From Candidatus Omnitrophota bacterium (GTDB taxonomy: Bacteria > Omnitrophota > Gorgyraeia > 2-01-FULL-45-10), in NCBI GenBank assembly GCA_041650935.1, contig JBAZKH010000001.1, positions 9,243 to 73,242 on the forward strand: a stretch of 64,000 nt of DNA, in the 5' to 3' direction. Below are positions 3,072-55,724 of the stretch, in pieces. The position numbers and the translations under genes were made by a program. Below the pieces are notes generated by a model. That model was not told where the DNA came from. It saw only the letters and a list, made by a program, of their open reading frames with translations, and did not search any database. Every line of letters begins with the position of its first letter. The stretch's first letter is position 1.

Positions 3072-3103
3072 TATTTCAGGTTCACTCAGCATAAATTTTC
3101 CAC

Positions 3104-3133
3104 TTGCCTCATATTATAATATTATGCTATAAT
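3104..3133 (+). promoter_or_regulatory. sigma70-like promoter candidate for ugd (TTGCCT-N18-TATAAT)
   Basis: -35-like TTGCCT at 3104-3109 and consensus TATAAT at 3128-3133, about 26 nt upstream of ugd ATG, with aagggg RBS. Confidence 0.3.
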
Positions 3134-3159
3134 CCTAGCCTTATTTTAAGGGGTAGACC

Positions 3160-18272: not shown

Positions 18273-19406
18273 GTGTATAAAGCCGATGTTTTAATTATAG
18301 GAGCCGGTGTTGTAGGATTGGCCGTTGCCGAAGAGCTTAGCAAATCTTCGAAGAATGTAGTAGTTGTAGAGAGGAACAAGGGGTTTGGACGGGAGACGAG
18401 TTCGCGTAATAGTGAGGTAATACACGGCGGTATATACTATCCTCCCGGCAGTCTCAAGGCGAGGATGTGTGTCCGGGGCAGGGAGCTCTTATATAAGTTT
18501 TGCATAGAGAATAAGATACCGCATAAGAAGACCGGCAAACTCGTAGTTGCCACAGACAAAGAAGATGTTGCGGCCCTGGAAGAGCTCTTCTCGAATGCTG
18601 TTAAGAATGGAGTGCCGGGATTACGGATTCTCGACGGGAAAGAAGCCGGGAAGATGGAGCCGGAGATCTCCGGGACAGCGGCTCTCTATTCTCCGGAGAC
18701 CGGGATAGTCGATTCGCATGCCCTTATGCAGAGGTTAAACGACAGGGCAAAAGATAACGGCGCCATGATAGCGCTCGATTCCGAGGTCATAGCTATCGAT
18801 GGCCGCGGCTATGATGTAACCGTAGAAGACGCGGATGGAACCGGTAAAATCTCCGCCGGACTTGTGATAAACTGCGCCGGCCTGGATTCGGATACCGTGG
18901 CCGCAATGGCAGGGATAGATATAAAGGAGCGTGGATATGAGCTTCATTATTGCAAGGGGCAGTATTTCCGTGTTAATCAAAAGAAGGCCGCGCGCATAAA
19001 GAGGCTGGTATATCCGGTTCCCGAGCCTAAAGCTGTCGGCCTGGGAATACATGCAACGCCGGATCTCGGGGGAGGGCTTCGCTTGGGGCCCGATCATGAA
19101 TATCTGAAGATCCGCGAAAAGGATTATTCGGTAGACGAGTCGCGGCGCGGAGATTTTTTCGAATCCGCCGTAAGATATATGCCTTTTCTCGAAGAGGAAG
19201 ATATCTATCCTGATACCGCCGGGATAAGGCCCAAACTGCAGGCCCGCGGCGGAGATTTTCGTGATTTTGTGATCGAAGAAGGATCTAAACTGGGATTACC
19301 GGGGTTCATCAATTTAATAGGCATAGAATCGCCCGGACTGACCGCCTCTCTTGCGATAGCTGAATACGTAAGCGGTCTTATCGGGCGCTCACAATCCAAT
19401 GGCTAA
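18273..19406 (+). CDS. FAD-dependent oxidoreductase (L-2-hydroxyglutarate oxidase/glycerol-3-phosphate dehydrogenase-like DAO family)
   Basis: GTG start. DVLIIGAGVVGLAVAEEL dinucleotide-binding motif, 377 aa. Confidence 0.65.
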   Translation: MYKADVLIIGAGVVGLAVAEELSKSSKNVVVVERNKGFGRETSSRNSEVIHGGIYYPPGSLKARMCVRGRELLYKFCIENKIPHKKTGKLVVATDKEDVAALEELFSNAVKNGVPGLRILDGKEAGKMEPEISGTAALYSPETGIVDSHALMQRLNDRAKDNGAMIALDSEVIAIDGRGYDVTVEDADGTGKISAGLVINCAGLDSDTVAAMAGIDIKERGYELHYCKGQYFRVNQKKAARIKRLVYPVPEPKAVGLGIHATPDLGGGLRLGPDHEYLKIREKDYSVDESRRGDFFESAVRYMPFLEEEDIYPDTAGIRPKLQARGGDFRDFVIEEGSKLGLPGFINLIGIESPGLTASLAIAEYVSGLIGRSQSNG

Positions 19407-20934
19407 AGAGAAAAATATAATCCTGATCTATCCCAAGACGGGCATGGACTTCGGCTCGACGGTAGCGCCGCCGCATGCGCTTCTTACGATAGCCGCGCCT
19501 CTACACAGGCAGGGGTACAGGATAGAGATTATCGACCAGAGGGTCGATAAGAATTGGCAGGAGAGGATAACATCGGCTCTCGGGCCGGAGACTATCTGCG
19601 TGGGTATTTCGTGCATGACCGGTACGCAGATATATTTTGCGGTAGAGATCGCAAAGGCCGTAAGAAGGTCCGGTTACGGAAAGGTGCCGATCGTGTGGGG
19701 CGGGCCGCATCCGTCGATATTGCCGGCCCAGACGCTTGCAAAAGAGTATGTGGATATAGTGTGCGTCGGCGAAGGGGACGTTACTTTCCCCGGCCTCGTA
19801 AAGGCGCTGGAGACCGGCTCGCCATTAAGCGGAATAAACGGCATAGCATTTAAAGACGGAGGCAAGGTTATCGTCAATTCCCCGGCGCCATTACTCGATA
19901 TGGAAGATCTGCTGCCTGTGCCGTGGGAACTTATAGACGTGGAAAGATATATTCACCCCGACATGTATCTCAAGAGATCGCGGGTCCTCGACATCGGCCA
20001 GACGAGCAGGGGCTGTCCTTTTAACTGCGGTTTCTGCTGCAGCGCCAGCCTGCGCATGCGGAAGTGGCGCGCCATGTCCGTCGCAAAGAGCCTGGAGAGG
20101 ATCATAGGGCCGGTCAGGAAATTCAACCTGGACGGGGTCTGGATCAGGGATGACGAATTTTATATAGATAGGGATAGAGCGAACAAGATCTGCGCGGAGA
20201 TAGTAAGGGAGGATCTGAATATCCGGTGGTACACTTCGGGGACGAGGGTCGATGTATTCAACAAAGCGTCGGGCGAGCAGACCGCCCTATTAAAGAAGAG
20301 CGGCGCGTATGTATTGAAGTTCGGCGCGGAATCGGGGAATAACAGGATATTGAAACTGGTTAATAAGGGGATAACGGTCGAAGAGACGATCCGCACGAAC
20401 CTCAAAGCCAGGACGCATGATATCATCCCTGCTTTTGCCCTTATGATAGGTTTCCCGACGGAGACATTCGACGAGGTAAACAATACTATCGACCTCATCT
20501 TCCGCCTGAAGAAAGATAATCCAAAAGCGCAGTTCGAAACAATGGCCATATATACGGCGCTGCCCGGTACTCCCATGTACGAGCTGGCGCTCGGCCACGG
20601 CCTTAAGCCGCCGCAGGACCTGGAGGAATGGAGCGACTGGAATTTCGATGAATACGATTTCCCCGGTAAGAGGATACCGTGGTTTAACGCAAGGGAGCGG
20701 GAGCGCCTGGGAAACATCTCATATATGAGCGTCCTTGCCAACGCCCTGCCGAACGCGATAGACAGCATAGAAAATTTATTCCTGAGAAGTTTATTGAAGA
20801 TACTCTACAGGCCCGTGAGCGCCTATTACAGGTTCAGGTTGAGACACAAGATGTACAGTTTTTCCCTGGACCTTGCGGCCGTGAGATACTTAAGAAAGAA
20901 GATATTTTACAGGAGCCATATCGTAGTAAAGTGA
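19399..20934 (+). CDS. cobalamin-binding (class B) radical SAM enzyme #2
   Basis: B12-binding N-domain, SRGCPFNCGFCCS. 511 aa. Confidence 0.75.
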   Translation: MAKEKNIILIYPKTGMDFGSTVAPPHALLTIAAPLHRQGYRIEIIDQRVDKNWQERITSALGPETICVGISCMTGTQIYFAVEIAKAVRRSGYGKVPIVWGGPHPSILPAQTLAKEYVDIVCVGEGDVTFPGLVKALETGSPLSGINGIAFKDGGKVIVNSPAPLLDMEDLLPVPWELIDVERYIHPDMYLKRSRVLDIGQTSRGCPFNCGFCCSASLRMRKWRAMSVAKSLERIIGPVRKFNLDGVWIRDDEFYIDRDRANKICAEIVREDLNIRWYTSGTRVDVFNKASGEQTALLKKSGAYVLKFGAESGNNRILKLVNKGITVEETIRTNLKARTHDIIPAFALMIGFPTETFDEVNNTIDLIFRLKKDNPKAQFETMAIYTALPGTPMYELALGHGLKPPQDLEEWSDWNFDEYDFPGKRIPWFNARERERLGNISYMSVLANALPNAIDSIENLFLRSLLKILYRPVSAYYRFRLRHKMYSFSLDLAAVRYLRKKIFYRSHIVVK

Positions 20935-21919: not shown

Positions 21920-23020
21920 ATGCAGGAAGCCAAGTTTGCCTGTGGTGAGATAGCGAAATATTTTAAGCCGGCGGGTCTGGACAGCCTGGTCCATTTCGTG
22001 ACCTATAAGTGTAATGCCAGATGCGCGCACTGTTTCTTCTCGAAGCAGCTCAACAAAGAAGGCGAGCTCTCCAGGGACGAAATTTTCCGCATGATCGGGA
22101 AACTCGGGAAACTGAAAGGGCTCCTCATCTCCGGCGGAGAGCCGTTTTTGCGGGACGACCTTGCCGGGATCGTGGCCGAATATGCGCTCAGGTGCGGCGT
22201 TGCCGTAGCATCGATTCCCACAAACGGATTTAATACGGACCGGATTATCGGCGCCTGTGAAACCATCTTAGGAAAGTGTAAGAACCTGAACCTGACCGTG
22301 GCTGTCTCCATCGACGCTCTCCACGATGATCATGACAGGCGGCGCGGTTTCCCGGGCGGGTTTGCCAGGGCCGCAGAGACCGCCCGGACTCTTGTCGAGT
22401 TGAAAAAGGCTTATCCGCGTTTGCGCGTGCATATCGTTACGGTTATAATGCCCGACAATGCAAAGACCGTCAGGGCCGTCTCCGGGTTTGTCCGGGACCG
22501 GATCGACCCCGATTATCACTGGTTTGAGCCTATGCGCCGGTTGTCCGGGAAGAGTCTTCCCCTGGAAGGTATCGCGCCGGATGAGTTGAGGAGATTTTTA
22601 AACGAGAATATCATATACTATTTTAAGAAGATCAAAGGCAGTTCGCAGAATATATATTCGAGCCGCAGGCTGAATAACGCCATAATAAATTTTGCGCTCA
22701 ACAACCTTAATATTGCGCTCGACAATTTCTTAGACGGCAAGAGATGGCCGGTCAAATGTGTCGCTGGCAGGAGGATAGCGGTCCTTTACCCGGACGGCGC
22801 CGTCTCGGCCTGCGAACTGCGTGAGCCGGTAGCGACGGTGCGCGATTTCGGTTATGATCTGCGGAGGTTGTTAAAGGACTATAAGTTTAAGGATGAAGTC
22901 AGGGATATATCGAAGGGGAACTGCAGCTGCTTCCACGGCTGTTTCATACCTCCTTCCGTCAGGTTCGATCCGCTCCAGATGGGCCGGCTGGCGTTTAAGA
23001 CGCTTTTCACCAAATACTAA
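21920..23020 (+). CDS. radical SAM enzyme with C-terminal SPASM/twitch-like Cys-rich domain
   Basis: FVTYKCNARCAHCF CxxxCxxC, GGEP motif, C-terminal ..GNCSCFHGCF Cys cluster. 366 aa. Confidence 0.6.
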   Translation: MQEAKFACGEIAKYFKPAGLDSLVHFVTYKCNARCAHCFFSKQLNKEGELSRDEIFRMIGKLGKLKGLLISGGEPFLRDDLAGIVAEYALRCGVAVASIPTNGFNTDRIIGACETILGKCKNLNLTVAVSIDALHDDHDRRRGFPGGFARAAETARTLVELKKAYPRLRVHIVTVIMPDNAKTVRAVSGFVRDRIDPDYHWFEPMRRLSGKSLPLEGIAPDELRRFLNENIIYYFKKIKGSSQNIYSSRRLNNAIINFALNNLNIALDNFLDGKRWPVKCVAGRRIAVLYPDGAVSACELREPVATVRDFGYDLRRLLKDYKFKDEVRDISKGNCSCFHGCFIPPSVRFDPLQMGRLAFKTLFTKY

Positions 23021-23042: not shown

Positions 23043-23747
23043 ATGAAGACGACCTTAATATTACCTACTTTGAATGAATTGGGCGGCATGAAAGAGATCA
23101 TGCCCAAGATAAAGAAGGAATGGTTCGACCAGATAATAGTGGTAGACGGCGGGTCGACGGACGGAACGATAGAATATGCCAGAGATAACGGCTACTCCAT
23201 CTACATCCAGAAAGGGAAGGGTTTAAGGCAGGGTCTGCGGGAGATGTGGGGAATGGTCGAAGGGGATATCGTGGTCACTTTCTCTCCCGACGGCAATTCG
23301 ATCCCGGAACTCATCCCGCCGCTTATAGAGAAGATGAAAGGCGGATACGACATGGTGATCGTCTCGCGGTATGCCAAGGGCGCGAGAAGTTACGACGACG
23401 ATTGGCTGACCCGTTTCGGCAACTGGATGTTTACGACGATGATAAACGTCCTTTTCAGGGCGCGTTACGACGACGCCCTTGTAATCTTCCGCGCATATAA
23501 GACAGATCTCATAGACAGGCTGGATATAAATAATGAGGCAAAGTTCCTGACGGCCGCCGAAAGGGCGGGGATACTCATAGGATGGGAACCCCAGCTCTCT
23601 ATCCGCTGTGCCAAGCGGAAACTTAAAGTGGCCGAGATACCGGGCGACGAACCGGCAAGGATATACGGCAAGAGGAAGATGAGACCGTTCCAGTCGGGAT
23701 CGGTCATGCTTGCGCAGATACTTTATGAGATTTTCGTCTGGCGTTAA
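23043..23747 (+). CDS. family-2 glycosyltransferase (DPM1-like)
   Basis: TLILPTLNE...VVDGGSTDGT... from ATG 23043. The track ORF starts at 22893, but its first 50 aa overlap the radical SAM gene and look non-coding. Confidence 0.7.
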   Translation: MKTTLILPTLNELGGMKEIMPKIKKEWFDQIIVVDGGSTDGTIEYARDNGYSIYIQKGKGLRQGLREMWGMVEGDIVVTFSPDGNSIPELIPPLIEKMKGGYDMVIVSRYAKGARSYDDDWLTRFGNWMFTTMINVLFRARYDDALVIFRAYKTDLIDRLDINNEAKFLTAAERAGILIGWEPQLSIRCAKRKLKVAEIPGDEPARIYGKRKMRPFQSGSVMLAQILYEIFVWR

Positions 23748-23761
23748 ATTTTAACGAAAAT

Positions 23762-24733
23762 ATGAAGATGAATAAAGCACAACTTACGGCGCTTTATGAG
23801 ACGATGCTTAAGATCAGGCTCGTCGAGCTGAAGATAGAAGAGCTCTATCCTCAGGACGAGATGCGGACACCCGTCCATCTCTGCATAGGCCAGGAGGCGG
23901 CGCCGGCCGGAGTTTGCGCGAATCTGGAAAAGGACGATTACGTCTTCAGCAACCATCGCGGGCACGGACACTATATCGCCATGGGCGGCGATCTGAGGTC
24001 CATGATCGCCGAATTATACTGCAAAGAGACCGGCTGTTCCAAAGGCCGGGGCGGCTCGATGCATCTTATAGATACCGCCGCCGGGTTCATCGGCAGTTCT
24101 TCGATCGTGGCCGGCAGTATACCTATTGCGACGGGCGCGGCTCTCGCTTCGGTATTACGCAATAGGCGCGGAAGAGTATCCGTAGTCTTCTTCGGCGATG
24201 CGGCCTCCGAGGAGGGCGTCCTCTTCGAGAGCATGAACTTTGCCGCGCTGAAGCGCCTGCCCGTCGTCTATGTGTGCGAGAATAATTTCTATTCGGTCTT
24301 TTCTCATCAAAGCGCAAGGCAGGCCAACTGCGACATCTTCAAAAGGCCGAGAGCGTTCGACATACCTTCATATCTCGCAGACGGGACCGACGCGGCCGAT
24401 GTCTACCTGAAATCACGGAAGGCCGTTTGCGATGCCCGTTCAGGCAGGGGCCCGTCGTTTCTGGAGTGCAGGGCATACCGCTGGAGGGGCCATGCCGGCC
24501 CCGGCGATCCCCTCAAAGACTCTTACAGAAAACCGGGCGAATGGGATGAATGGATCGTGAAGGACCCGGTTAAAAAATTTGAAGGCGTTCTTAAAAAGAA
24601 GAAGGTTATTACGGGTAAAAGTATAGAAAAGCTTCGGGCAAAGATCGAGAGGGAGATCATGGAGGCATTCGAATTTGCCATACGGTCTCCTCTGCCTGCG
24701 CGGAGCGCAGTTGCGGAATATCTGGTGGGTTAG
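23762..24733 (+). CDS. thiamine-diphosphate-dependent dehydrogenase E1 component, alpha subunit (PdhA/AcoA-like)
   Basis: HLCIGQEA...NHRGHGH..GGDL...GGSMH...GIPIATGAA...VVFFGDAASEEG...YVCENN motifs. 323 aa. Confidence 0.75.
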   Translation: MKMNKAQLTALYETMLKIRLVELKIEELYPQDEMRTPVHLCIGQEAAPAGVCANLEKDDYVFSNHRGHGHYIAMGGDLRSMIAELYCKETGCSKGRGGSMHLIDTAAGFIGSSSIVAGSIPIATGAALASVLRNRRGRVSVVFFGDAASEEGVLFESMNFAALKRLPVVYVCENNFYSVFSHQSARQANCDIFKRPRAFDIPSYLADGTDAADVYLKSRKAVCDARSGRGPSFLECRAYRWRGHAGPGDPLKDSYRKPGEWDEWIVKDPVKKFEGVLKKKKVITGKSIEKLRAKIEREIMEAFEFAIRSPLPARSAVAEYLVG

Positions 24734-24737
24734 ATAT

Positions 24738-25781
24738 ATGCCCTGGACAAAAATTTTAATAGAGAAAAAAGCGCCGGACTTCGATGAAGATGCGGGTAAG
24801 GATTTAAGGAAACTTACCGTACCTGAAGCGATACAGGAGACGCTTTCCCAGGCGCTTGCCGTAGATAAGCGGGTCTTTGTGATGGGTCAGGGCGTTGACG
24901 ATCCCTCAGGGATGTTCGGCATGACGCTTGGCCTCCAGGAGAGATACGGCAGACAGAGGGTTTTTGACACGCCTCTATCCGAAAATGCCCTTACCGGCGT
25001 AGCGATAGGCGCGGCGCTTACGGGCATGAGGCCCGTGTACTTTCATAACAGGCCCGACTTTCTTTTACTGGCAATGGACCAGATCGTGAACCACGCCGCG
25101 AAGTATAGTTATATGTTCGGGGGCAAAGTGCGGATCCCGATGGTAATTGCCGCCGTGATAGGCAGGGGATGGGGCTCCGCCGCCCAGCATTCCCAGTCCC
25201 TGCACGGGCTCTTTATGCACGTCCCGGGACTGCGCCTTGTCATGCCGAGCACCGCATACGACGCAAAGGGGCTGTTGGCTGCCGCGATTGCCGACGGTAA
25301 TCCCGTCATATTCATAGAACATCGCTGGCTCTTTAAGCACAAAAGCCATGTCCCGAAAGAGCTATATACTATCCCGTTCGGCAAAGGGCTGGTGCGGCGT
25401 CAGGGCAGGGATGTGACGATCGTGGGAATTTCCTGTATGGTTATAGAGGCCCTGCGCGCGGCGGAGGAACTGGCGCGCGCAGGCTGCAGCGCCGAGGTGA
25501 TCGATCCCAGGACATTGAGGCCGCTCGATGAAGAGGTCATCCTGAAGTCCGTCAGAAAGACAGGGCGTTTATTGATTGCCGATACCGACTGGCGGACTTG
25601 CGGCGCAGCCTCCGAGATCGCTTCGATAGCGGCGCAAAAAGGATTGAAATACCTTAAAGCGCCTGTGAAGATAGTTGCCTGGCCGGACCTGCCGGTCCCG
25701 GCCAGTTATGTCCTAGAGGAGGCTTTTTATCCGGGTAAGGACGATATCGTAAAAACGGTGAAGGAGTTATTGAAAAGATGA
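24738..25781 (+). CDS. thiamine-diphosphate-dependent dehydrogenase E1 component, beta subunit (transketolase-like)
   Basis: KLTVPEAIQETL...VFVMGQGV...FDTPLSENALTGVAIGAAL. ATG 24738, 4 nt after the alpha stop. Confidence 0.75.
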   Translation: MPWTKILIEKKAPDFDEDAGKDLRKLTVPEAIQETLSQALAVDKRVFVMGQGVDDPSGMFGMTLGLQERYGRQRVFDTPLSENALTGVAIGAALTGMRPVYFHNRPDFLLLAMDQIVNHAAKYSYMFGGKVRIPMVIAAVIGRGWGSAAQHSQSLHGLFMHVPGLRLVMPSTAYDAKGLLAAAIADGNPVIFIEHRWLFKHKSHVPKELYTIPFGKGLVRRQGRDVTIVGISCMVIEALRAAEELARAGCSAEVIDPRTLRPLDEEVILKSVRKTGRLLIADTDWRTCGAASEIASIAAQKGLKYLKAPVKIVAWPDLPVPASYVLEEAFYPGKDDIVKTVKELLKR

Positions 25782-26731
25782 AGAAGACGATTAAACGGAT
25801 GAAGATACTGGTTACCGGAGGAGCGGGCTATATAGGATCTGTGCTGGTGCCCGCGCTATTGAAAGAAGGATTTGAGGTTACCGTGATCGATAACTTCATA
25901 TATAATCAGGCCCCGCTGCTGGACTGTTGTCATGACGACAAGCTGACCATAGTCCGCGCGGACGCCAGGGATAAGAGTATAGTTTCCAGATACCTGAAAG
26001 GGGCCGATGCGATATTCCCGCTGGCCTGTCTTACAGGCGCGCCTCTTTGCCAGCAGAATCCTCTCGAGGCCAGGAGCGTAATCGTAGATGCTTTAAAGAT
26101 GATACTGAGCCTGCGCAGCAAAAAGCAGGCCATCATCTATCCGACTACCAACAGCGGCTATGGAATAGGCCAGAAAGGGATCTTCTGCACAGAGCGGACG
26201 CCGTTACGGCCGGTCTCTCTCTACGGAAGACTAAAAGTTGAGGCGGAGAAGGCACTGCTCGACTCAGGTGATTGTATCACATTGAGGCTCGCCACGGCCT
26301 TCGGTATAAGCCCTCGGATGAGGCTCGATCTCCTGGTCAACGATTTCACCTACCGCGCCGTAAACGACCGGTTCATCGTCCTGTTTGAGGCGCACGCGAA
26401 GAGAAATTATATACACGTCCGGGATGTGGCGAAGGCGTTTATACATTGTCTGAATAATTTTCCGTTCCTTAAGGGCGAGCCGTATAACGTAGGCCTTAGT
26501 GACGCCAATTTGAGCAAGCGGGAACTGTGCGCGGAAATAAAAAAACAGGTGCCGGACTTCTATTTTACCGAGGCGCGGATCGGTCATGATCCGGACAAGA
26601 GGGATTATATCGTCAGTAACGAAAAGATAGAACGGACCGGGTACAGACCCGACTATTCCATCCGGAAGGGTATATCGGAATTGATAAAGGGTTACCAGGT
26701 CGTCAGAAGAAACCAGTTCTCAAACGTATGA
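25778..26731 (+). CDS. NAD-dependent epimerase/dehydratase (SDR) acting on a nucleotide sugar
   Basis: ILVTGGAGYIGSVL, YGRLKVEAE (YxxxK). 317 aa. ATGA overlap upstream. Confidence 0.7.
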   Translation: MKKTIKRMKILVTGGAGYIGSVLVPALLKEGFEVTVIDNFIYNQAPLLDCCHDDKLTIVRADARDKSIVSRYLKGADAIFPLACLTGAPLCQQNPLEARSVIVDALKMILSLRSKKQAIIYPTTNSGYGIGQKGIFCTERTPLRPVSLYGRLKVEAEKALLDSGDCITLRLATAFGISPRMRLDLLVNDFTYRAVNDRFIVLFEAHAKRNYIHVRDVAKAFIHCLNNFPFLKGEPYNVGLSDANLSKRELCAEIKKQVPDFYFTEARIGHDPDKRDYIVSNEKIERTGYRPDYSIRKGISELIKGYQVVRRNQFSNV

Positions 26732-26740
26732 GGTGAAAAG

Positions 26741-27748
26741 ATGATAATATCGAGGACGCCTTTCCGCATCTCTTTTTTCGGCGGAGGGACCGATTATCCT
26801 GCGTGGTACAGGGAGAAGAACGGCGCTGTGCTGGCCACCACCATAAATAAGTACTGCTATATCTCCTGCCGTTATCTTCCTCCTTTCTTTGCCCATAAAT
26901 CGCGGATCATCTACTCGAAGATGGAACAGGTCAGGCGGGTATCCGAGATACAGCATCCTTCCGTCCGGGCCTGTCTTACCCTGATGAGGATAAGGGACGG
27001 CGTGGAGATACACCACGACGGAGATTTGCCTGCAAGGACGGGACTCGGGTCGAGTTCTACGTTCACCGTAGGACTGCTTAACTCCCTGGCCGGGCTGAAG
27101 GGCAACATAATATCGAAGATGGATCTGGCCAAGAAAGCTATCCACGTAGAGCAGGATATGCTGAAGGAGAACGTAGGGTCGCAGGACCAGATATCCGCCG
27201 CTTACGGCGGTTTTAACCTGATAGAATTCAGCGGCGACCACAAATTCAAGATACACCCGGTGACTATCAACCATAAAAGGCTCAACCTATTGCAGGACCA
27301 TCTTCTTCTCTTCTTTACGGGGATTTCCCGCTATGCCTCGGAGATAGCCAGGGAGCAGATAAAGAGGATACCGGACAATAAGAGCGAGCTGGGCGAGATC
27401 TTCGACATGGTCCATGAAGCGGTCGACATAGTCAAAGGCAATGCCGGGTTGTCGCGGTTCGGGAGGCTCTTGAACGAGAGCTGGCAGATCAAGAAGAGGT
27501 TATCGAAACTCATAACGACGCCGGAGATAGACGATATATATTACTCTGCCATAAAAGCCGGGGCGATAGGCGGCAAACTCCTCGGAGCCGGAGGGGGAGG
27601 GTTCATTCTCTTCTTTGCCGAACCCGGAGCGCATCCGCGGATCAGGGAGCGGTTAAAGCATCTTCTTAATGTCCCGTTCAAATTCGAAAATTTCGGCAGC
27701 CAGATAATATTCTACGATCCTACCGGTTCGCTCGAGAGGGGCAAATGA
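26741..27748 (+). CDS. hddA: GHMP kinase, D-glycero-alpha-D-manno-heptose 7-phosphate kinase (HddA-like)
   Basis: MIISRTPFRISFFGGGTD, GLGSSSTF (GHMP motif), GAGGGGF. 335 aa. Confidence 0.7.
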   Translation: MIISRTPFRISFFGGGTDYPAWYREKNGAVLATTINKYCYISCRYLPPFFAHKSRIIYSKMEQVRRVSEIQHPSVRACLTLMRIRDGVEIHHDGDLPARTGLGSSSTFTVGLLNSLAGLKGNIISKMDLAKKAIHVEQDMLKENVGSQDQISAAYGGFNLIEFSGDHKFKIHPVTINHKRLNLLQDHLLLFFTGISRYASEIAREQIKRIPDNKSELGEIFDMVHEAVDIVKGNAGLSRFGRLLNESWQIKKRLSKLITTPEIDDIYYSAIKAGAIGGKLLGAGGGGFILFFAEPGAHPRIRERLKHLLNVPFKFENFGSQIIFYDPTGSLERGK

Positions 27749-28467
27749 ACGGATTCAGCCTATCGAAGATAGACGTCCTTATTTTATGCGGCGGTAAAGG
27801 GGAGCGGCTCAAGGGCCTTGCCGGCGAAAAACCCAAGCCGATGGCCGATATCAGCGGCAGGCCGTTCCTCGATATTCTGATAACACACCTGGCGGGTTTC
27901 GGGTTTCGCAGGTTTATCTTATGCGCCGGTTATAAAGGCGAGGTTATCAGGGATTATTATTCGCAAAAACCGCAGGGCAATTCCGAAATTTTAACGATAA
28001 TAGAGAAGCCGCCGCTAGGGACCGCCGGTGCGATAAAGAACGCGGAGCCGGTTATCGGGACCAACCCTTTCCTGGTTTCGAACGGAGACTCGTTCTGCAA
28101 GCTCGATTACTTTGAATTTGTTAAAGACCATTTCGCAAGAGGCTCTTCATATTCTATGGTCGTAGCCAAGTCGTCGGGTAACCGGGACTGCGGCCTGGTT
28201 AAGCTGAACGATGCCGGCAGGATAACGGGATTTAGCGAGAAAAAGGAGAGCGCGGGCGACGGGTATGTGAATGCCGGCATCTATCTGCTGGATAAGAAGA
28301 TATTTGCCCTTATAAAACGCGGCAAGAAGACGTCGCTGGAACACGACATCTTTCCTGGATTAGCCGGTAAGGATTTTTACGGTTACCCGGTAAATAACGT
28401 TCTTACGGATATAGGGACGCCCGAAAGATATTTGCGGGCCCGGAAACTTTTTGACGATGCAGGCTAA
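27745..28467 (+). CDS. hddC: D-glycero-alpha-D-manno-heptose 1-phosphate guanylyltransferase-like nucleotidyltransferase (HddC-like)
   Basis: VLILCGGKGERLKGL nucleotidyltransferase motif, 240 aa, directly downstream of hddA-like. Confidence 0.6.
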   Translation: MNGFSLSKIDVLILCGGKGERLKGLAGEKPKPMADISGRPFLDILITHLAGFGFRRFILCAGYKGEVIRDYYSQKPQGNSEILTIIEKPPLGTAGAIKNAEPVIGTNPFLVSNGDSFCKLDYFEFVKDHFARGSSYSMVVAKSSGNRDCGLVKLNDAGRITGFSEKKESAGDGYVNAGIYLLDKKIFALIKRGKKTSLEHDIFPGLAGKDFYGYPVNNVLTDIGTPERYLRARKLFDDAG

Positions 28468-29902
28468 ACCGCTAGACCTTCTTATAATAAAACCCGGAAG
28501 CCAGAAGATACTATACGGCGACCTGAGCAGGACTTTATCCGCCCTCGAGCCGCCGCTCTGGGCGGCGCTCCTTGCGGCATTCGTAAGAGACGCAGGTTTT
28601 AGCGTAAAGATTATCGATATGGAGATAGGGCCGGATAGTCTTTTGCCTATCCTGCGGGAAGAGAGTCCGCGTCTTGCGGCTATTGCGGTCTCCGGCACAA
28701 ATCCTTCCGCTTCTACAATGAACATGATAGGAGCCCGGGCGGTCCTGGGAAGTATCAGGCGGTCGAATGCGTCTATCGCGACTATCCTGATGGGTCTGCA
28801 CCCATCCGCTCTGCCGGAGAGGACTCTTAAAGAAGAGCCTGTGGATATGGTCTGCCAGGGCGAAGGTTTTCATACGCTTACGGATATTTTAAGCGGCCGG
28901 GCGAATAAAGGAATAAAAGGGTTGTGGTATAGGGACGGTGACCGTATAAAAAGTAGTCCTATGGCAGAGCTGGCCGACCCGGACAAACTTCCGTCTCCGG
29001 CCTTCGATCTTCTGCCCATGCCAAGCTACAGGGCGCATAATTGGCACAGCTGGACCAATAAGTCGGAGCGTCAGCCGTATGGAGTTATCTATACGAGCCT
29101 GGGATGCCCGTATAACTGCTCTTTCTGCTGTATCAATGCTCTATTCGGCGTCCATAAGATACGGCAGAGGTCTCCGGACCTGGTCATAGAGGATATCGCC
29201 TGCCTCGTCGATAATTACGGGGTCAAAAATATAAAGATAATAGACGAGATGTTCGCTTTCAAGGAAGCGCATGTCGATAAATTGTGCGATCTGATCGTCG
29301 AGCGCGGGTATGACCTGAACATATGGGCCTATGCGAGGGTCGATACGCTTACCAAAGGCATGGTCGGTAAGATGAAGAGCTCCGGCATAAACTGGCTCGC
29401 CCTGGGCTTCGAATCGGGGAGCAAAAAGGTAAGGGACGGTGTTACAAAGGGCAGGTTCGGAAATAAAGAGGTACTCGCCTCCGTCAGGATGATACGGGAT
29501 GCCGGCATCGGTATAATCGGCAACTTCATCTTCGGCCTGCCTAACGACGATATAGATACGATGAACGAGACGCTCGAGATGGCAAAAGAGCTTAATTGCG
29601 AGTATACGAATTTCTACGTCTGTATGGCCTATCCCGGCTCGCGGCTTTACGGCGAGACCGACCCGGCATATCTGCCGGAGTCATGGGAAGGTTATTCGCA
29701 GTTCGGTTACGAGACAAAACCTCTCCCGACGAAATGCCTGCGCCCTGAAGAGGTGCTGGCTTTCAGGGACCGGGCTTTCATAGATTTTTATGGCAGCCGG
29801 CGGTATCAGGATATGATGGCCGCGCGGTTCGGGACGAAGGTGCAGGGCGAGATAAAAAACATGCTTGAATATAAACTGGCCAGGAGACTATTAAGTGTCT
29901 AA
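28457..29902 (+). CDS. cobalamin-binding (class B) radical SAM enzyme #3
   Basis: B12-binding N-domain, SLGCPYNCSFCCI. ATG 28457, with an in-frame TTG at 28451. Confidence 0.75.
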   Translation: MQAKPLDLLIIKPGSQKILYGDLSRTLSALEPPLWAALLAAFVRDAGFSVKIIDMEIGPDSLLPILREESPRLAAIAVSGTNPSASTMNMIGARAVLGSIRRSNASIATILMGLHPSALPERTLKEEPVDMVCQGEGFHTLTDILSGRANKGIKGLWYRDGDRIKSSPMAELADPDKLPSPAFDLLPMPSYRAHNWHSWTNKSERQPYGVIYTSLGCPYNCSFCCINALFGVHKIRQRSPDLVIEDIACLVDNYGVKNIKIIDEMFAFKEAHVDKLCDLIVERGYDLNIWAYARVDTLTKGMVGKMKSSGINWLALGFESGSKKVRDGVTKGRFGNKEVLASVRMIRDAGIGIIGNFIFGLPNDDIDTMNETLEMAKELNCEYTNFYVCMAYPGSRLYGETDPAYLPESWEGYSQFGYETKPLPTKCLRPEEVLAFRDRAFIDFYGSRRYQDMMAARFGTKVQGEIKNMLEYKLARRLLSV

Positions 29903-31130
29903 AAAAAAGCGGAAAGATAATGCGGTGCAGGTTACGTTCGGAACGGTATCTATAGACAATAGATCCAAGCGGCTCGTAAGGGATATACTCGATTCTAACC
30001 GGGTTTCGAGCGGCAGCCATGTCCGCGAGTTCGAAAGAAGGTTCGCCGCGCTTATCGGCGCCAGAGCGGCTGTAGCGCTTAGTTCCGGGACGGATGCCGA
30101 TGCGCTCGCGTTGGCGGTATTGTACGATTTCGGCGCGCGCCGCGGCGACGATATCATAGTCCCGGCGCTATCTTTTGTCGCGACGGGAAATGCCGTCCTG
30201 CAGGCAGGTTTCAACCCCGTCTTCGTCGACGTGGACAGGGGAACGCTCAATATCGACCCCTTGAAGATAGAGTCTGCCATAACGCGGAAGACTAGAGCGA
30301 TAATGCCTGTCCATCTCATGGGCAAGCCGGCGCCGATGGATGAGATAAAAAGGATCGCGCGGCGGCATAAGCTATTCGTCATAGAAGATGCCGCCGAGGC
30401 GCATGGCGCTAAATATAAAGGAAAGAATATCGGTACGCTGGGCGACATGGGGGCATTCAGCCTTTACGTGGCCCACATAATAACGACGATAGAGGGCGGT
30501 GTGGTGGTTACGGACAGGCCTGAGTTTGCGGAGATACTGAGGTCGCTCAGGTCGCACGGCAGGGCCTGTAAGTGCGAAAGGTGCGTCCTGAATATCTCTT
30601 CCGGGTATTGCCCGAAGAGATTCAGCGGAGAGAATAAGGACGACATAAGGTTCGTCTTCGAGAGGATAGGATTTTCGTGCAAGATGAACGAACTGGAGGC
30701 GGCTGTAGGGCTCGGCAATATAGGCAAATACGCAAAGATAGTCGAGGCAAGGAGGCGGAACCTTAAATATCTGATGAAAAAGTTCCGCCGGTTCAGCCCT
30801 TATCTTGCGACGATCAGCGAGGAGCGTTACGAGCGTATCGGCCCTCACGCCTTTCCCGTAATAATACAGGCGGCGGCCGGATTTACAAGGAACGAGATAG
30901 TCGATTACCTCGAAAAAAACGGCGTCGAAACCCGCACGCTATTTTCATCGATGCCGACACAGTGTGCCGGTTTCAAGTACCTGGGATACAAAGAAGGCGA
31001 TTTCCCGAATGCCGAATATATCGGCAATAACGGTTTTCACATTGGTGTGCACCAGGGCCTGAAGCGCTGTCACCTGGATCATTTCCTCGGGCTCGTCGCT
31101 GAATTTTTGGATAGATGCGATAGACGGTAA
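29895..31130 (+). CDS. DegT-fold PLP/PMP-dependent sugar 3-dehydratase-like enzyme (ColD/E1 RfbH-like; His replaces the Schiff-base Lys)
   Basis: GTG start. FSLYVAHIITTIEGG aligns with the aminotransferase FS..aiK.ittgEGG block with H in place of K, as in ColD and CDP-6-deoxy-L-threo-D-glycero-4-hexulose 3-dehydrase. Extra CKCERC...C cysteine cluster. Confidence 0.55.
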   Translation: MSKKKRKDNAVQVTFGTVSIDNRSKRLVRDILDSNRVSSGSHVREFERRFAALIGARAAVALSSGTDADALALAVLYDFGARRGDDIIVPALSFVATGNAVLQAGFNPVFVDVDRGTLNIDPLKIESAITRKTRAIMPVHLMGKPAPMDEIKRIARRHKLFVIEDAAEAHGAKYKGKNIGTLGDMGAFSLYVAHIITTIEGGVVVTDRPEFAEILRSLRSHGRACKCERCVLNISSGYCPKRFSGENKDDIRFVFERIGFSCKMNELEAAVGLGNIGKYAKIVEARRRNLKYLMKKFRRFSPYLATISEERYERIGPHAFPVIIQAAAGFTRNEIVDYLEKNGVETRTLFSSMPTQCAGFKYLGYKEGDFPNAEYIGNNGFHIGVHQGLKRCHLDHFLGLVAEFLDRCDRR

Positions 31131-31134
31131 AATT

Positions 31135-32058
31135 ATGAAAAGAGACTCGAAGATATTGATAATCGGCTGGAAGAGTCCGGTGGGGCAAAGACTCGCGGAA
31201 CGCCTTAAGGCCGATGATTTTAAGCGGATAATTACTATGCCGGAGGGAGGCTTGTCAAGACAGTCTGCCGTCGAGAGATTCTTTAAGAGTAAGAGGCCTC
31301 GCTACGTCTTCTTCATGGATGTCAGGTCGGGAGGGATCGCCGCCAATTCGGCTTATCCGGCGGAATTTATCTATGATAATCTTAGCGCGGAATTGAATGT
31401 GATCCACGCCTCATATAAAACGGGGGTAAAGAGGCTGCTCTTTATGGCCAGCTCCTGCTCATATCCGAAAGCCTGTCTTCAGCCGATGAGAGAAGAGTAT
31501 ATTTTGAGCGGGCCGCTTGAACCTACGAGCGCGGCCTTCGCTATAGCGAAGATAGCGGGGATGAAGATGTGCCAGTATTACAACCGCCAATATGGCACTA
31601 GTTTTGTATGCGTGATCCCGGCTACAGCGTACGGTCCGGGCGATGATTTCGACATCGGAACCTCTCATGTGATCCCGGCGCTTATCCATAAGATACATAG
31701 CGCTAAGACGGGCGGCCGGAGCAGTGTTACCATATGGGGTACGGGATCTCCGCGGCGTGAATTTATCCATGCCGATGACCTGGCTGACGCCGCCATAAAG
31801 ATAATGCTGGATAAGAAAGCCCCGCCGGTTATAAATATAGGTACGGGTCACGACGTTTCTATAAAAGAACTGGCGCTGCTCCTTAAAGATATAACAGGAT
31901 TCAGGGGCAAGCTTAAATTCGACCGCGCAAAACCCGACGGTGCTTACCGTAAACTGCTCGATATATCCAAATTGAAATCTACAGGCTGGATGCCTAGAGT
32001 AGACCTTAGGACAGGCCTTGAAGATCTCTATAAGTGGTACCTGAAGCATGCGGCATAA
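31135..32058 (+). CDS. GDP-L-fucose synthase-like 3,5-epimerase/4-reductase (Fcl/ColC family)
   Basis: About 307 aa SDR with the Fcl-like order (KILIIG..., YAIAKIAG YxxxK, WGTGSPRREF). Confidence 0.6.
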   Translation: MKRDSKILIIGWKSPVGQRLAERLKADDFKRIITMPEGGLSRQSAVERFFKSKRPRYVFFMDVRSGGIAANSAYPAEFIYDNLSAELNVIHASYKTGVKRLLFMASSCSYPKACLQPMREEYILSGPLEPTSAAFAIAKIAGMKMCQYYNRQYGTSFVCVIPATAYGPGDDFDIGTSHVIPALIHKIHSAKTGGRSSVTIWGTGSPRREFIHADDLADAAIKIMLDKKAPPVINIGTGHDVSIKELALLLKDITGFRGKLKFDRAKPDGAYRKLLDISKLKSTGWMPRVDLRTGLEDLYKWYLKHAA

Positions 32059-34207
32059 ATATAAAAGAATCCTCTATATTTGCGCCGCCCTTCTTGTGGC
32101 GGGCATCTTTTTAGCGCTCCTTTACCAACCCATACAGGCTTCTTTCCACGAGCAGGATCTCTGGTGGATGGTCCCCGCGATATCGTCGCTTACGGAGGGC
32201 CGCTCTATCCTGGAAAACCTGAAACTCTTCCTCTTCAATCCATATCCCACGCATCAGGGGGACCCGGGGATGAACATTTATTTAGCGCTGGTGCTCTCGA
32301 CATTCGGTTTCGAGACGAAATATTTTCTTTTTATATTAGTCGCGCTCCATCTCCTCTCGGCGTTTCTCTTCTATACTCTCCTGCGGAGAATGGGACTGGA
32401 ATTCCGGATCGCCTTCTTTTCAGCCATTGTATATCTGGCGACTTTCATCCATTTCAGTTACTATACATGGCCCATGTCGGCCCACCATCTTTTTGTGCTC
32501 TTCCTGAGCCTTGTCATCCTGAACCTGTACTTCGAGACTACCGCAAGGTTCGACGCTAAAGGTAACTGGAAGCCGGTCTACTGGCTTACCATAGGCGTTA
32601 ACTTCCTGGCGCCGTTCTGCCAGATAACGATCCTTCTATTGCCGGCCGCTATCCTCGCCCATATACTCATATCGGCCAAAGACGGCGGGGAGAGGCTCAA
32701 AAAATACGACTTATGGCTGCCGCTGTTCATAACCTATCTGGGTTACCCGGTGATGCGGTTTCTCTGTGTCGGCTATATCCATCTCGAGCGGTTCCTCCAT
32801 TTTGCCAATAATGCGTCGAGAAATATGGCGCTATTCCCGGCGGTCTTTGCGGCAGGGGTCGGCGCGTTATTTATCTTCAGGGGTTTCATAAAATACTCGT
32901 CCAGGTATAAACTGGGCAGGATATTCAAGATCCTGTGCATAGCCGCGGTGGTCCTGTATCTAGCCGTCTTCATTGCGGTCTCCGGCAGAAGCGATCTCAC
33001 CTCGCCCAGCAAGGTCAAACTGCATGACTTCTTGTCGCCATACAATTTTCTCAGACCCTTCGGCATAATGTTCATGAATTTCATATCGCCTATCAGGTCG
33101 GCATTATCCATCGACTCGACGATGACCTACCATATAATACCTCCGCGCGATACCCTCGCCGGTAATTTAATATGCCTCCTGCTTATAGGCATCTTCGTAA
33201 GCAAGTATCTTTTTAAGCATAGAGGGCTCATCGTCTTCCTGCTATTCTATGCCGTTGCCTTGCGCTATATGCGCATATTGACGACCATGCTATATTCCCG
33301 CCACTTCCTTTATGTCACGCCATTATTCGCCGTGGTCTTTTCCGGGTCTTTCGTATATATCTACGACTGGATCATCTCCCGTATCAAGTTGAAGAAGGTA
33401 ATACAGGAGATCGTCCTGGTCATTATCTTCGTCGGGCTTTGCGTTCCGAATATATTTGCGATAAAGACTGCTTTGGCGCGGGGCAGGCTGGTGAATACCT
33501 TTTTGATATACGATTATATCAGGGCGGCCAATATAATTAAGAATGATACCGTTTCCACGCCCGGCCGTATTAACGCGAACGATATATCTATCAAGGGTGT
33601 GGTGCCGATGCCTTTCAATGTCGATGAATACTGGAGCCCCGGGCCCGGCGATCCGTTGAGATTTGCCCCGTTCCGGTATGCCTTCGGGCAGGTCTTTAAC
33701 GACAGGTCTATGGCCGGTATCAATATAAATCGTCCCGCGGCGGCGGGTAGGCCGGCCTATGAGATAAGGGATTTCAGGGTATATGATTCGCATGGCCGGA
33801 ACGTAGACAGGTTTAGTTCTTGCGTCGACGAGGGACTGCAAGAGCTGAGGATGGGAAATGATAAGAAGGCCTTGTCGGCATTTAATGAAGCTATAAAAGT
33901 GCGGCCGTTCCTATTTAAATTTATTCTCCCCGGAGATAAGTTAAGCGATATCGGGTGGATTACAAACGGCACCGATCTTAAGACCTGGATAAAGGATATT
34001 TATAATTATAATAATAATTGTGACGAAGAGTTTTATGTTGCGAAAATTAAATATGTCCAGGCTACGATTACAAGCGAGATAGCCGATTACCTTAAGGCCC
34101 TTTCTTGTGCCGCGTCCCTGGATGAGAAGCTTGGAAGGGCGGCGGAGTCTAAGGAGCTCCTGTCGTATATACGCTATATCGATAGTAATTATTCTATTGA
34201 CAAGTGA
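32048..34207 (+). CDS. polytopic membrane protein with GT-C-like (ArnT/PMT-type) N-terminal domain and C-terminal TPR-like region
   Basis: About 12 TM helices over the first ~470 aa, an early loop with an HEQD acidic motif, and a soluble C-terminus with TPR-like repeats (FNEAIKVRP...). 719 aa. Confidence 0.4.
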   Translation: MRHKYKRILYICAALLVAGIFLALLYQPIQASFHEQDLWWMVPAISSLTEGRSILENLKLFLFNPYPTHQGDPGMNIYLALVLSTFGFETKYFLFILVALHLLSAFLFYTLLRRMGLEFRIAFFSAIVYLATFIHFSYYTWPMSAHHLFVLFLSLVILNLYFETTARFDAKGNWKPVYWLTIGVNFLAPFCQITILLLPAAILAHILISAKDGGERLKKYDLWLPLFITYLGYPVMRFLCVGYIHLERFLHFANNASRNMALFPAVFAAGVGALFIFRGFIKYSSRYKLGRIFKILCIAAVVLYLAVFIAVSGRSDLTSPSKVKLHDFLSPYNFLRPFGIMFMNFISPIRSALSIDSTMTYHIIPPRDTLAGNLICLLLIGIFVSKYLFKHRGLIVFLLFYAVALRYMRILTTMLYSRHFLYVTPLFAVVFSGSFVYIYDWIISRIKLKKVIQEIVLVIIFVGLCVPNIFAIKTALARGRLVNTFLIYDYIRAANIIKNDTVSTPGRINANDISIKGVVPMPFNVDEYWSPGPGDPLRFAPFRYAFGQVFNDRSMAGININRPAAAGRPAYEIRDFRVYDSHGRNVDRFSSCVDEGLQELRMGNDKKALSAFNEAIKVRPFLFKFILPGDKLSDIGWITNGTDLKTWIKDIYNYNNNCDEEFYVAKIKYVQATITSEIADYLKALSCAASLDEKLGRAAESKELLSYIRYIDSNYSIDK

Positions 34208-34769: not shown

Positions 34770-35465
34770 ATGAAGAGTTTAGATAAGTGCGGCATAATAA
34801 TCCAGGCGCGCATGTCGTCAAAAAGGTTCTCCGGGAAGATGATGGCCAGGTTATCCGCGGACCCGCTGGTAAAATATGTATACGCCCGGTGCAGGAGATC
34901 CGGGGCCGGCAAGGTCCTGGTGGCTACATCCACGGAGGGTTCCGACGACGTTCTGTATAACTATTGCAAAGCGGAGCGGATACCGGCGATGCGGGGGGAT
35001 ATCGACAACGTCGTAAAAAGATATGCCGACGCCGCCCGCGCGGCAGGCATCGAATATATCTGCAGGGTATGCGGAGATACGCCGTTCGTCGATACGGCGC
35101 TCATAGACGCTCTATTCGATACGCTTATTTCCGGAAAACTCGATTACGCCGCGCCCGACAGGCAGACATGCGCCCCGGGATTCTATTGCGAGACATTTAC
35201 ACTTAAAGCGCTAACGAAGGTTCTCGAGTCGGCTAAATCACCGGATGACCTGGAGCATGTTACGAAGTATATCCTGGATAACAGGGATAAATTTGCGGTG
35301 AAACTTGTGGACGCGGGCCTGAACCCGGACTTCGCAAGGAAGACGAGATTCACGATAGACTACCCGGAAGATATCGAGACCGGAAGAAAGATAGCGGCGA
35401 GGCTTTCGGCCGATTATTCCTTTACTTCACGCGATGTCCTCGAAGCGGTCCGGGAGATCGGGTAA
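34770..35465 (+). CDS. cytidylyltransferase (acylneuraminate/NeuA-PseF-SpsF family)
   Basis: GIIIQARMSSKRFSGK N-terminal CTP-transferase motif. 231 aa. Confidence 0.6.
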   Translation: MKSLDKCGIIIQARMSSKRFSGKMMARLSADPLVKYVYARCRRSGAGKVLVATSTEGSDDVLYNYCKAERIPAMRGDIDNVVKRYADAARAAGIEYICRVCGDTPFVDTALIDALFDTLISGKLDYAAPDRQTCAPGFYCETFTLKALTKVLESAKSPDDLEHVTKYILDNRDKFAVKLVDAGLNPDFARKTRFTIDYPEDIETGRKIAARLSADYSFTSRDVLEAVREIG

Positions 35466-35472
35466 ATTTTAG

Positions 35473-37326: not shown

Positions 37327-37328
37327 TA

Positions 37329-38027: not shown

Positions 38028-38029
38028 CC

Positions 38030-55721: not shown

Positions 55722-55724
55722 AAA

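Follow-up and report, generated by a model that had tools for sequence, protein, structure and literature searches.

The 64-kb stretch of DNA analysed here ("the window": contig JBAZKH010000001.1, positions 9,243 to 73,242) comes from a Candidatus Omnitrophota metagenome-assembled genome (MAG). From about 5.8 kb to its end, it is occupied by one long glycan operon of about 58 kb on the plus strand. Within this operon lie two adjacent genes for proteins resembling the alpha and beta subunits of the E1 component of pyruvate dehydrogenase (PDH), a thiamine diphosphate (ThDP or TPP) enzyme. They open a cassette that continues, in this order, with a Cj1427-like short-chain dehydrogenase/reductase (SDR), a kinase, a guanylyltransferase-like protein, a B12-binding radical S-adenosylmethionine (radical SAM) enzyme, a sugar 3-dehydratase of the DegT family with a histidine in place of the Schiff-base lysine (His-type) and a protein related to the GDP-fucose synthase Fcl. 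A first-pass annotation had proposed that the pair, lacking E2 and E3 partners, transfers a two-carbon (C2) unit to a keto-sugar nucleotide. This proposal is supported by the phylogeny of the alpha subunit, by the absence of E2 genes from 56 related loci and by the predicted ketone-forming function of the neighbouring enzymes. It can be put forward with considerable confidence that the pair works independently of E2, as a carboligase in a nucleotide-sugar pathway. The more specific assignment, according to which it would place a pyruvate-derived C2 branch at C4 of GDP-3-deoxy-4-keto-heptose, is held to be probable.

The location of the pair between a family 2 glycosyltransferase (GT2) gene and nucleotide-sugar genes, noted in the first-pass annotation, was recovered: the GT2 gene lies upstream, and the SDR, GHMP kinase and nucleotidyltransferase genes follow downstream. 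The alpha protein belongs to the E1_dh family and, as had been claimed, contains the TPP-binding motif, which is intact (G145-D146-A...E173-N174-N175) and invariant in 20 relatives. The beta protein consists of a Transket_pyr and a Transketolase_C domain. These E1_dh and transketolase-type domains are the only ones found in the pair, and the single-chain TPP_enzyme_N/M/C arrangement of YerE-type enzymes is absent. An NCBI protein identical to the window alpha (P0001) has been called at 321 aa, and for this reason the alpha start is probably the ATG at 23768. The beta start codon, ATG 24738, sits four bases past the alpha stop codon (TAG 24731-24733, spacer ATAT). The alternative beta start at TTG 24675, taken from a mechanical open reading frame (ORF) call, is almost certainly wrong because the called orthologues measure 346-348 aa. 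The pair had been described as translationally coupled. The close packing and a probable co-translation agree with this description, but the two genes do not overlap; the four-base overlap ATGA (25778-25781) joins beta to the following SDR gene, not alpha to beta.

Compared with family models, the alpha protein reaches 306 bits on TIGR03182, below the cutoff of 394. The beta protein reaches 327 bits on the PDH E1 beta subfamily model NF006667 (cutoff 321) and 318 bits on the equivalog NF008854, under its cutoff of 454; its score against the PDH E1 beta subunit of G. stearothermophilus (3DUF_B) is 250 bits. Among the plus-strand ORFs of at least 120 aa, no 2-oxoacid_dh domain, lipoyl domain or E3-type protein was found, and the reported lack of E2/E3 partners thus holds for the 64-kb window.

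Related pairs were collected by a scan with the alpha alignment, using one genome per GTDB species. This yielded 80 loci with alpha identities of 37-82%, whose neighbouring proteins were clustered and annotated with Pfam. Loci with an alpha protein at most about 42% identical to that of the window mostly consist of E1 alpha, E1 beta and E2 genes, often with a gene for an AMP-binding enzyme, whereas no E2 gene occurs above this value except in L043, which itself falls into the E2 clade. An E2 gene lies within 10 kb in none of the 56 non-redundant glycan-type loci but in 16 of the 26 E2-clade loci. Conversely, cassette genes are found in none of these 26. An E3 gene is likewise absent from the 56 glycan-type loci. 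At least one marker of heptose pathways is present in 36 of them, and in 15 of the 56 a protein orthologous to Cj1427 is encoded with an identity of 50% or more.

A neighbour-joining tree of 91 alpha sequences (about 320 columns, 100 bootstraps) unites the E2-linked alphas and human PDHA1 in a clade in 99 of 100 bootstraps and leaves the window alpha outside it. The clade of the window's own type (type A) is recovered in 86 of 100 bootstraps. The actinomycete alphas form a clade in all 100 and are placed among the glycan-type groups. In the phylogenetic comparison suggested by the first-pass annotation, AviB1, which was not among the sequences, was represented by TxnB3 of trioxacarcin biosynthesis and a Kibdelosporangium homologue, reached via two Streptomyces plasmid matches. 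Both fall on the window's side of the tree, apart from the E2-linked E1 subunits. The Kibdelosporangium homologue has as neighbours a nucleoside diphosphate (NDP)-hexose 2,3-dehydratase, a macrolide-type glycosyltransferase, a carbamoyltransferase and a polyketide synthase (PKS); its locus belongs to the kibdelomycin kind of deoxysugar antibiotic clusters.

Judged from the alignments, nothing in the catalytic residues points to a dead enzyme, and nothing in them appears to discriminate between a carboligase and an E2-coupled E1. The alpha protein keeps the equivalents of human His63 and His263, and the beta protein keeps Glu59 and His128, which are invariant. A loss of the catalytic histidines related to the lipoyl reaction was looked for in the pair, and none has been lost. 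Other positions separate the glycan-type from the E2-type proteins, namely P37, R186 and G246 in alpha and H103, R105, R143, Q153 and R196 in beta. Alpha P37 corresponds to human Phe61, two residues ahead of His63, and G246 to human Met265 in the loop after His263, while beta Q153 follows His128 by two residues. As several of these clade-specific residues adjoin active-site positions, a changed acceptor site is suggested. The three alpha residues are also present in TxnB3 (BLASTP alignment), and all five beta residues occur in two Streptomyces plasmid pairs, the sole actinomycete comparison for beta.

These Streptomyces pairs, L087 (13986-19516, S. griseofuscus pSGRIFU1) and L089 (S. albogriseolus pSALBX2), belong to the same E2-independent clade, and their alphas are 51-53% identical to that of the window. 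They adjoin genes for a 1103-aa condensation-domain protein, an acyl carrier protein (ACP) and a phosphopantetheinyl transferase as well as type II PKS genes, which suggests acyl transfer to a carrier protein. The idea that the extra arginine and histidine residues of the clade bind a nucleotide diphosphate was considered and is weakened by the same residues in these condensation-domain/ACP pairs.

The cassette as a whole is conserved over wide distances. It was traced via close alpha homologues on long contigs and recurs in Omnitrophota (L001, L008), in Chloroflexota (L004/L005, L013) and, in Planctomycetota, at L002/L003, L006, L007 (Sedimentisphaerales type) and L011. Its genes other than the nucleotidyltransferase are 47-82% identical across loci; among them, the HddA-like kinase is 53-63% identical in all cassette loci and the B12-binding radical SAM enzyme 47-53% in the cassette loci of four phyla. 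The nucleotidyltransferase is 33-52% identical wherever present and was not detected in the Chloroflexota locus L004. E1 alpha is immediately preceded by a gene for a SIS (GmhA-like) protein in the Chloroflexota loci. The small GT2 gene travels with the cassette (44-91% identity in L001, L002/3, L008, L025, L037, L047 and L088), and the membrane protein with about 11 transmembrane segments (11-TM protein) has a 54%-identical orthologue at the same position in L001. When plasmids were searched with tblastn, the whole cassette was located on pDMC1 of the cultured Solidesulfovibrio magneticus RS-1 (L088; E1 pair DMR_RS21995/22000). There, alpha is 52%, beta 60%, the SDR 54%, the DegT protein 61% and the B12-binding radical SAM enzyme 52% identical to its counterpart in the window. 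This locus also encodes a PMT-like lipid-carrier-dependent glycosyltransferase (downstream), LhgO and a SIS protein.

The contexts of the E1 pairs without E2 can be divided into four types. Types A and A' are those of the window kind and are linked to Cj1427 orthologues. Type B is characterised by radical-SAM/SPASM genes and a GT9 heptosyltransferase, and type C by HldE, SIS, SDRs, a methyltransferase and Lys-type aminotransferases. Type D comprises Bac_transf, E1 alpha, E1 beta, DegT, a class I/II aminotransferase and a PglF-like 4,6-dehydratase. The DegT proteins are Lys-type in types C and D. The type D block was seen in L026, L028, L030, L032-L034, L038, L042, L044, L049, L052 and L057, its hosts including Nitrospirota, Bacteroidota and Saccharibacteria, and in this block the E1 clade is probably put to another use, of the hexosamine type. 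Other heptose-linked E1 contexts were seen in L015, L046 (an Akkermansia muciniphila MAG), L050, L077 (Pelagibacteraceae), L014-L020 and L039. One of them contains HldE, SIS, HAD, SDRs, a methyltransferase and two aminotransferases, and another SPASM radical SAM enzymes and a GT9 heptosyltransferase.

Table. Genes of the E1 cassette and associated genes in the window, with the matches on which their assignment is based
Feature	Coordinates	Strand	Evidence
FAD oxidoreductase, L-2-hydroxyglutarate-oxidase-like	18273..19406	+	DAO family 1.9e-68
Small GT2 glycosyltransferase	23043..23747	+	Glycos_transf_2; likely true start ATG 23043
E1 alpha-like ThDP subunit, 323 aa	23762..24733	+	PF00676 E1_dh 3.9e-62, residues 15-312
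E1 beta-like subunit, 347 aa	24738..25781	+	Transket_pyr PF02779 1.8e-32; Transketolase_C PF02780 1.6e-34
SDR, Cj1427 orthologue (GDP-heptose C4-dehydrogenase type)	25778..26731	+	410 bits to PDB 6VO6/6VO8
GHMP kinase, HddA-like (heptose-7-phosphate 1-kinase type)	26741..27748	+	GHMP_kinases_N and GHMP_kinases_C
Sugar-1-phosphate nucleotidyltransferase, ManC/HddC-like, probably guanylyltransferase	27745..28467	+	NTP_transferase 2.3e-30
B12-binding radical SAM enzyme	28451..29902	+	B12-binding and Radical_SAM domains
Pyridoxal/pyridoxamine phosphate (PLP/PMP)-dependent sugar 3-dehydratase, RfbH/ColD type	29895..31130	+	PDB 3BCX, 2GMS; His for Lys
GDP-fucose-synthase-like (Fcl-like) SDR without catalytic Tyr	31135..32058	+	NF047922; 1BSV
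~11-TM membrane protein, candidate lipid-carrier-dependent glycosyltransferase	32048..34207	+	Hydropathy scan

The enzymes encoded next to the pair indicate which acceptor it may use. Over its full length (residues 8-316 against 3-311, E 5.7e-122), the SDR aligns with the chain of 6VO6, which the homology search identifies as a 313-aa C. jejuni protein and which we take to be Cj1427, in keeping with the literature. Cj1427 is a GDP-heptose C4-dehydrogenase that produces GDP-4-keto-heptose (PMC10680097, PMC7949155). Raushel and co-workers combined it with a C. jejuni 3-dehydratase in vitro and obtained GDP-D-glycero-4-keto-3-deoxy-heptose (PMC10680097). By this chemistry, the cassette would encode a route to a 3-deoxy-4-keto nucleotide sugar, which is the acceptor type of YerE in yersiniose synthesis (PMC9306805).

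The dehydratase of the cassette has its best PDB matches in the CDP-6-deoxy-4-hexulose-3-dehydrase 3BCX (RfbH/E1) and in ColD (2GMS). When it is aligned with 3BCX and with a Lys-type perosamine synthase-like aminotransferase, a histidine replaces the Schiff-base lysine (SLYVAHIITT). The protein also carries an RfbH-like CxCxxC...C motif, suggestive of an Fe-S cluster, which is missing from the cassette orthologues in L004 and L011 and from the ColD-like lineage. The DegT protein is His-type in 13 of the 15 Cj1427-linked E1 loci, that is, in all that have a DegT homologue in reach, and these proteins are drawn from two lineages, RfbH-like with the cysteines and ColD-like without them. Since the His-type state is maintained across two lineages, the 3-deoxy-4-keto intermediate appears to be conserved.

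The Fcl-like protein scores 373 bits on NF047922 (cutoff 500) and 278 bits against the E. coli GDP-fucose synthase 1BSV. In the numbering of the latter, Tyr136 is changed to Phe, while Ser107, Cys109, Lys140 and His179 are kept. Besides the window, the Tyr-to-Phe change is kept by the orthologues of five non-redundant loci from two phyla, among them L001, L002/3, L006 and L007. The simplest reading is that the protein is probably an epimerase that no longer reduces C4. The loss of the reductase tyrosine with retention of the epimerase cysteine and histidine would fit a pathway in which the C4 ketone is retained.

The kinase has its best NCBIfam match in HddA (153 bits, under the cutoff of 600), and the nucleotidyltransferase in mannose-1-phosphate guanylyltransferase (145 bits), followed by HddC (118 bits, cutoff 300), both below their cutoffs. 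A SIS (GmhA) gene was not found in the window, and its only HAD-family gene (63143-63874), with a weak Pfam Hydrolase match, is remote from the cassette. Related cassette loci do contain SIS genes. The predicted identity of the sugar as a heptose draws mainly on the orthology of the SDR and on the heptose genes of related loci, and a GDP-heptose derivative rather than a hexose is the most likely acceptor. Neither the B12-binding radical SAM enzyme of the cassette nor the other radical SAM genes reached an NCBIfam equivalog; a role of the former in C-methylation is a guess. The 11-TM protein has no Pfam match, and the same applies to five large proteins of the locus.

Upstream of the pair, the FAD oxidoreductase (18273-19406) scores 278 bits on the LhgO model NF008726, just under the cutoff of 299. 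The S. magneticus cassette locus encodes a true LhgO with 328 bits (L088 22365-23567), and in L051 a 40%-identical LhgO-like homologue (2518-3630) directly follows E1 beta. LhgO-like genes occur in only these three loci. The enzyme could recycle the L-2-hydroxyglutarate formed by Cj1427-type dehydrogenases; no mention of such recycling of the Cj1427 co-substrate was found in the literature searched. A direct tie of the E1 pair to the 2-oxoglutarate/L-2-hydroxyglutarate cycle of Cj1427 was also considered. It was rejected because both enzymes would release reducing equivalents, and LhgO-like genes are limited to the three loci.

Branching enzymes composed of an E1 alpha/beta pair are known as the alpha-KADH2 (alpha-keto acid dehydrogenase 2) class, which uses pyruvate to attach acetyl (C2) branches to position C3 or C4 of keto sugars in aldgamycin, kosinostatin, paulomycin, trioxacarcin, avilamycin and kibdelomycin (PMC12247030). 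KbDH-alpha/beta has been tested in vitro, with pyruvate as the sole donor accepted, and the keto group on the branch is subsequently reduced, methylated, oxidised or transaminated (PMC12247030). Genetic evidence for Plm8/9, equivalent to Pau11/12, comes from the paulomycin papers, which cite AviB1/B2 (PMC4802897, PMC4753412). Like the window pair, the actinomycete pairs (AviB1/AviB2, Pau11/12 = Plm8/9, TxnB3 and its partner, KbDH-alpha/beta) are encoded by adjacent genes of the same domain families, without nearby E2/E3 genes and amid genes for nucleotide-sugar enzymes by which a ring ketone is formed. However, the window alpha is only 42% identical to TxnB3, and its genes belong to a cell-envelope glycan operon of a diderm candidate phylum, whereas the actinomycete pairs belong to antibiotic clusters. 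The predicted acceptors also differ, being a GDP-heptose after Cj1427-type oxidation in the window and TDP-2,6-dideoxyhexoses made via 4,6- and 2,3-dehydratases in the known pairs.

The YerE/YerF system of yersiniose shares another part of the window's logic, as a His-type 3-dehydratase generates a nucleotide-activated 3-deoxy-4-keto sugar and an acyl anion derived from a 2-oxo acid is added at C4 (PMC9306805). ErwE and MMAR_2332 (erwiniose, caryophyllose) belong to the same YerF/YerE group. YerE, however, is a single chain of the decarboxylase (acetolactate-synthase-like) superfamily, with an architecture unrelated to E1 alpha/beta, and its sugar is a CDP-3,6-dideoxyhexose, unlike the GDP-heptose predicted for the window. 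Erwiniose was examined as a heptose-derived model and set aside, the literature describing it as a hexose with a long acyl branch added by a YerE homologue. In the literature searched, Gram-negative surface sugars have been treated as the domain of YerE, with E1 pairs assigned to the antibiotic pathways of Gram-positive bacteria (PMC4753412).

With the capsular GDP-heptose pathway of C. jejuni, the cassette shares a Cj1427-type dehydrogenase, an HddA/HddC-like activation pair, a PLP-dependent 3-dehydratase and an Fcl-family protein. The C. jejuni pathway has neither a ThDP enzyme nor a B12 radical SAM enzyme and ends with the reduction of C4; in the window, the Fcl-like protein is without the reductase tyrosine and the E1 pair is inserted. 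The E1 subunits of pyruvate, acetoin and branched-chain dehydrogenases have the same folds, ThDP motif and equivalents of beta Glu59/His128 and alpha His63/His263, at 33-40% identity. The window pair differs from them by the absence of neighbouring E2/E3 genes, by its separate clade and by substitutions beside the active site and in the loops that in PDH gate the access of the lipoyl domain.

Taken together, these comparisons suggest that the pair is an alpha2beta2-type ThDP carboligase of the alpha-KADH2 kind that has been recruited into a GDP-heptose tailoring cassette. The chemistry of the pair, its donor, its acceptor and the order of steps would then be as follows. With GmhA and GmhB supplied from elsewhere in the genome, the Cj1427 orthologue would oxidise C4 of GDP-heptose using 2-oxoglutarate as hydride sink, which the upstream LhgO-like oxidase may regenerate. 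The His-type dehydratase would remove the 3-OH group to give GDP-3-deoxy-4-keto-heptose, and the Tyr-less Fcl-like protein would epimerise beside the ketone without reducing it. The E1 pair would decarboxylate pyruvate and add the resulting hydroxyethylidene-ThDP to the C4 ketone, yielding a 4-C-acetyl-branched tertiary alcohol with a net gain of C2H4O. The B12 radical SAM enzyme may modify this product further, perhaps by C-methylation, and the small GT2 and the 11-TM protein would bring the sugar to the envelope. Whereas the kind of enzyme is known, the literature searched contains no description of its use in envelope glycans of diderm and candidate phyla, of its coupling to Cj1427-type oxidation or of a branched 3-deoxy-heptose. 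No relevant paper came up when the literature was searched for E1 genes within heptose or O-antigen clusters, an absence that is no proof of novelty.

Several observations weigh against this assignment. The distance tree resolves the relationships among the non-E2 groups poorly, and the clade signature, including the extra arginine and histidine residues, is shared with the Streptomyces plasmid pairs, which lie away from sugar genes. Because of this, clade membership alone does not fix the acceptor, and the signature is a mark of the E2-independent clade, not of a particular acceptor. The sugar could be other than a heptose, since the HddA and HddC scores are far below the equivalog cutoffs and the window has no GmhA gene and no clear GmhB gene. 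No gene for an E3-type reductase was seen in the cassette despite the RfbH-like Fe-S motif of the dehydratase. The catalytic tyrosine of the Fcl-like protein is retained in about half of the cassette loci; variants in which the Fcl gene adjoins the E1 genes keep it. The argument that the ketone is spared is therefore not general and is supportive only for the window's subgroup. Finally, we know of no sugar of the predicted type.

It is also conceivable, though rather unlikely, that the same kind of enzyme acts on another carbonyl, for instance at C6 or C7 of the heptose side chain (chain extension), possibly after the action of the B12 radical SAM enzyme, or that it uses another donor, such as a different 2-oxo acid or a ketose providing a hydroxyacetyl group. 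ThDP carboligases take aldehydes more readily than ketones, and the B12 radical SAM gene is fixed in the cassette. Long 2-oxo acids are used by YerE relatives (PMC9306805), and split transketolases have been proposed to give hydroxyacetyl branches (PMC12247030). Furthermore, the pair adjoins Lys-type aminotransferases and methyltransferases in other contexts, so the surrounding chemistry is varied. However, the described E1-type branching enzymes all act at ring ketones at C3 or C4, with KbDH accepting pyruvate only (PMC12247030), and the most faithful partners of the pair are the two enzymes that would create and condition a C4 ketone. 

A position upstream of the nucleotide sugar, where a transketolase- or DXS-like pair would supply an uncommon phosphate of a ketose or deoxy-ketose for the SIS protein, the kinase and the nucleotidyltransferase, seems improbable. 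Type D loci are without a kinase, an isomerase or a nucleotidyltransferase, and for this reason the pair must act there at or after the nucleotide-sugar level. The overlap of the window pair with the C4-dehydrogenase gene, the ordinary GDP-heptose substrate to which the Cj1427 orthologue (410 bits) points and the nature of alpha as a true E1_dh protein, not a Transketolase_N protein, argue in the same direction, even though beta is distantly similar to DXS and transketolase, the SIS gene immediately precedes E1 alpha in the Chloroflexota loci, and a cassette with a kinase and a nucleotidyltransferase implies that a sugar phosphate is activated de novo. It is highly improbable that the pair is the usual E1 of a pyruvate or acetoin dehydrogenase, lying by chance in a glycan locus and with its E2 and E3 encoded elsewhere. 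Such an enzyme would explain why the best solved-structure matches are PDH E1 subunits, why beta just passes the PDH subfamily model and why the catalytic histidine and glutamate residues are intact, and the survey of this genome for E2/E3 covers the 64-kb window of a 710-kb contig. It is at odds with the alpha score under the equivalog cutoff, with the exclusion of alpha from the E2-linked clade, with the E2 counts (0 of the 56 related loci, but 16 of the 26 E2-clade loci) and with the embedding of the pair, overlapping the next gene, in a cassette found across at least four phyla.

Beyond the cassette, the operon has further unusual features. It contains eight B12-binding radical SAM genes (14291-15736, 19399-20934, 28451-29902, 41515-42897, 48055-49731, 52705-54207, 54234-55721 and 57734-59227) and one more radical SAM gene (21920-23020), a load of radical chemistry that is unusually dense for a polysaccharide locus. 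A two-gene module, composed of a B12 radical SAM gene and a gene for a protein of about 660 aa, is duplicated in tandem (54234-57725 and 57734-61213). The two ~660-aa proteins are 38% identical to each other and have no Pfam match. The cassette is followed by a second sugar module (34770-41510), which encodes a CMP-type cytidylyltransferase, an AsnB-like amidotransferase, a NeuB-family protein that is short at 232 aa, a GT2 whose tail weakly resembles a cytidylyltransferase (PF02348, at the E-value limit) and a carbamoyltransferase. This module looks like a modified nonulosonic-acid or related pathway.

E1 pairs of this kind were seen in Omnitrophota, Planctomycetota, Chloroflexota, Thermodesulfobacteriota, Nitrospirota and Bacteroidota, in Alpha- and Gammaproteobacteria including SAR11, and in Verrucomicrobiota including Akkermansia. 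A plausible but tentative extension of the above is that E1 alpha/beta carboligases form a broad, unrecognised toolkit for surface glycans that is mainly wired to heptoses. Within it, the window cassette would make an undescribed class of sugar, a 3-deoxy-4-C-acetyl (or 4-C-hydroxyethyl) heptose that is modified by the B12 radical SAM enzyme and exported to the envelope on a lipid carrier. So far, C-branched surface sugars of Gram-negative bacteria have been attributed to single-chain enzymes of the YerE type, and E1 pairs to actinomycete antibiotic clusters. If the proposal is true, the annotation of such genes as pyruvate or acetoin dehydrogenase would be wrong, and in MAGs of anaerobes they would have been miscounted as central metabolism. 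The pairs would also be new ketone-accepting ThDP biocatalysts, and S. magneticus RS-1, with the cassette on pDMC1, offers a tractable test organism. A two-subunit carboligase would then be widespread in the envelope glycans of uncultured and some cultured bacteria, and it would produce a family of branched "higher" heptoses as yet unseen by structural glycobiology.

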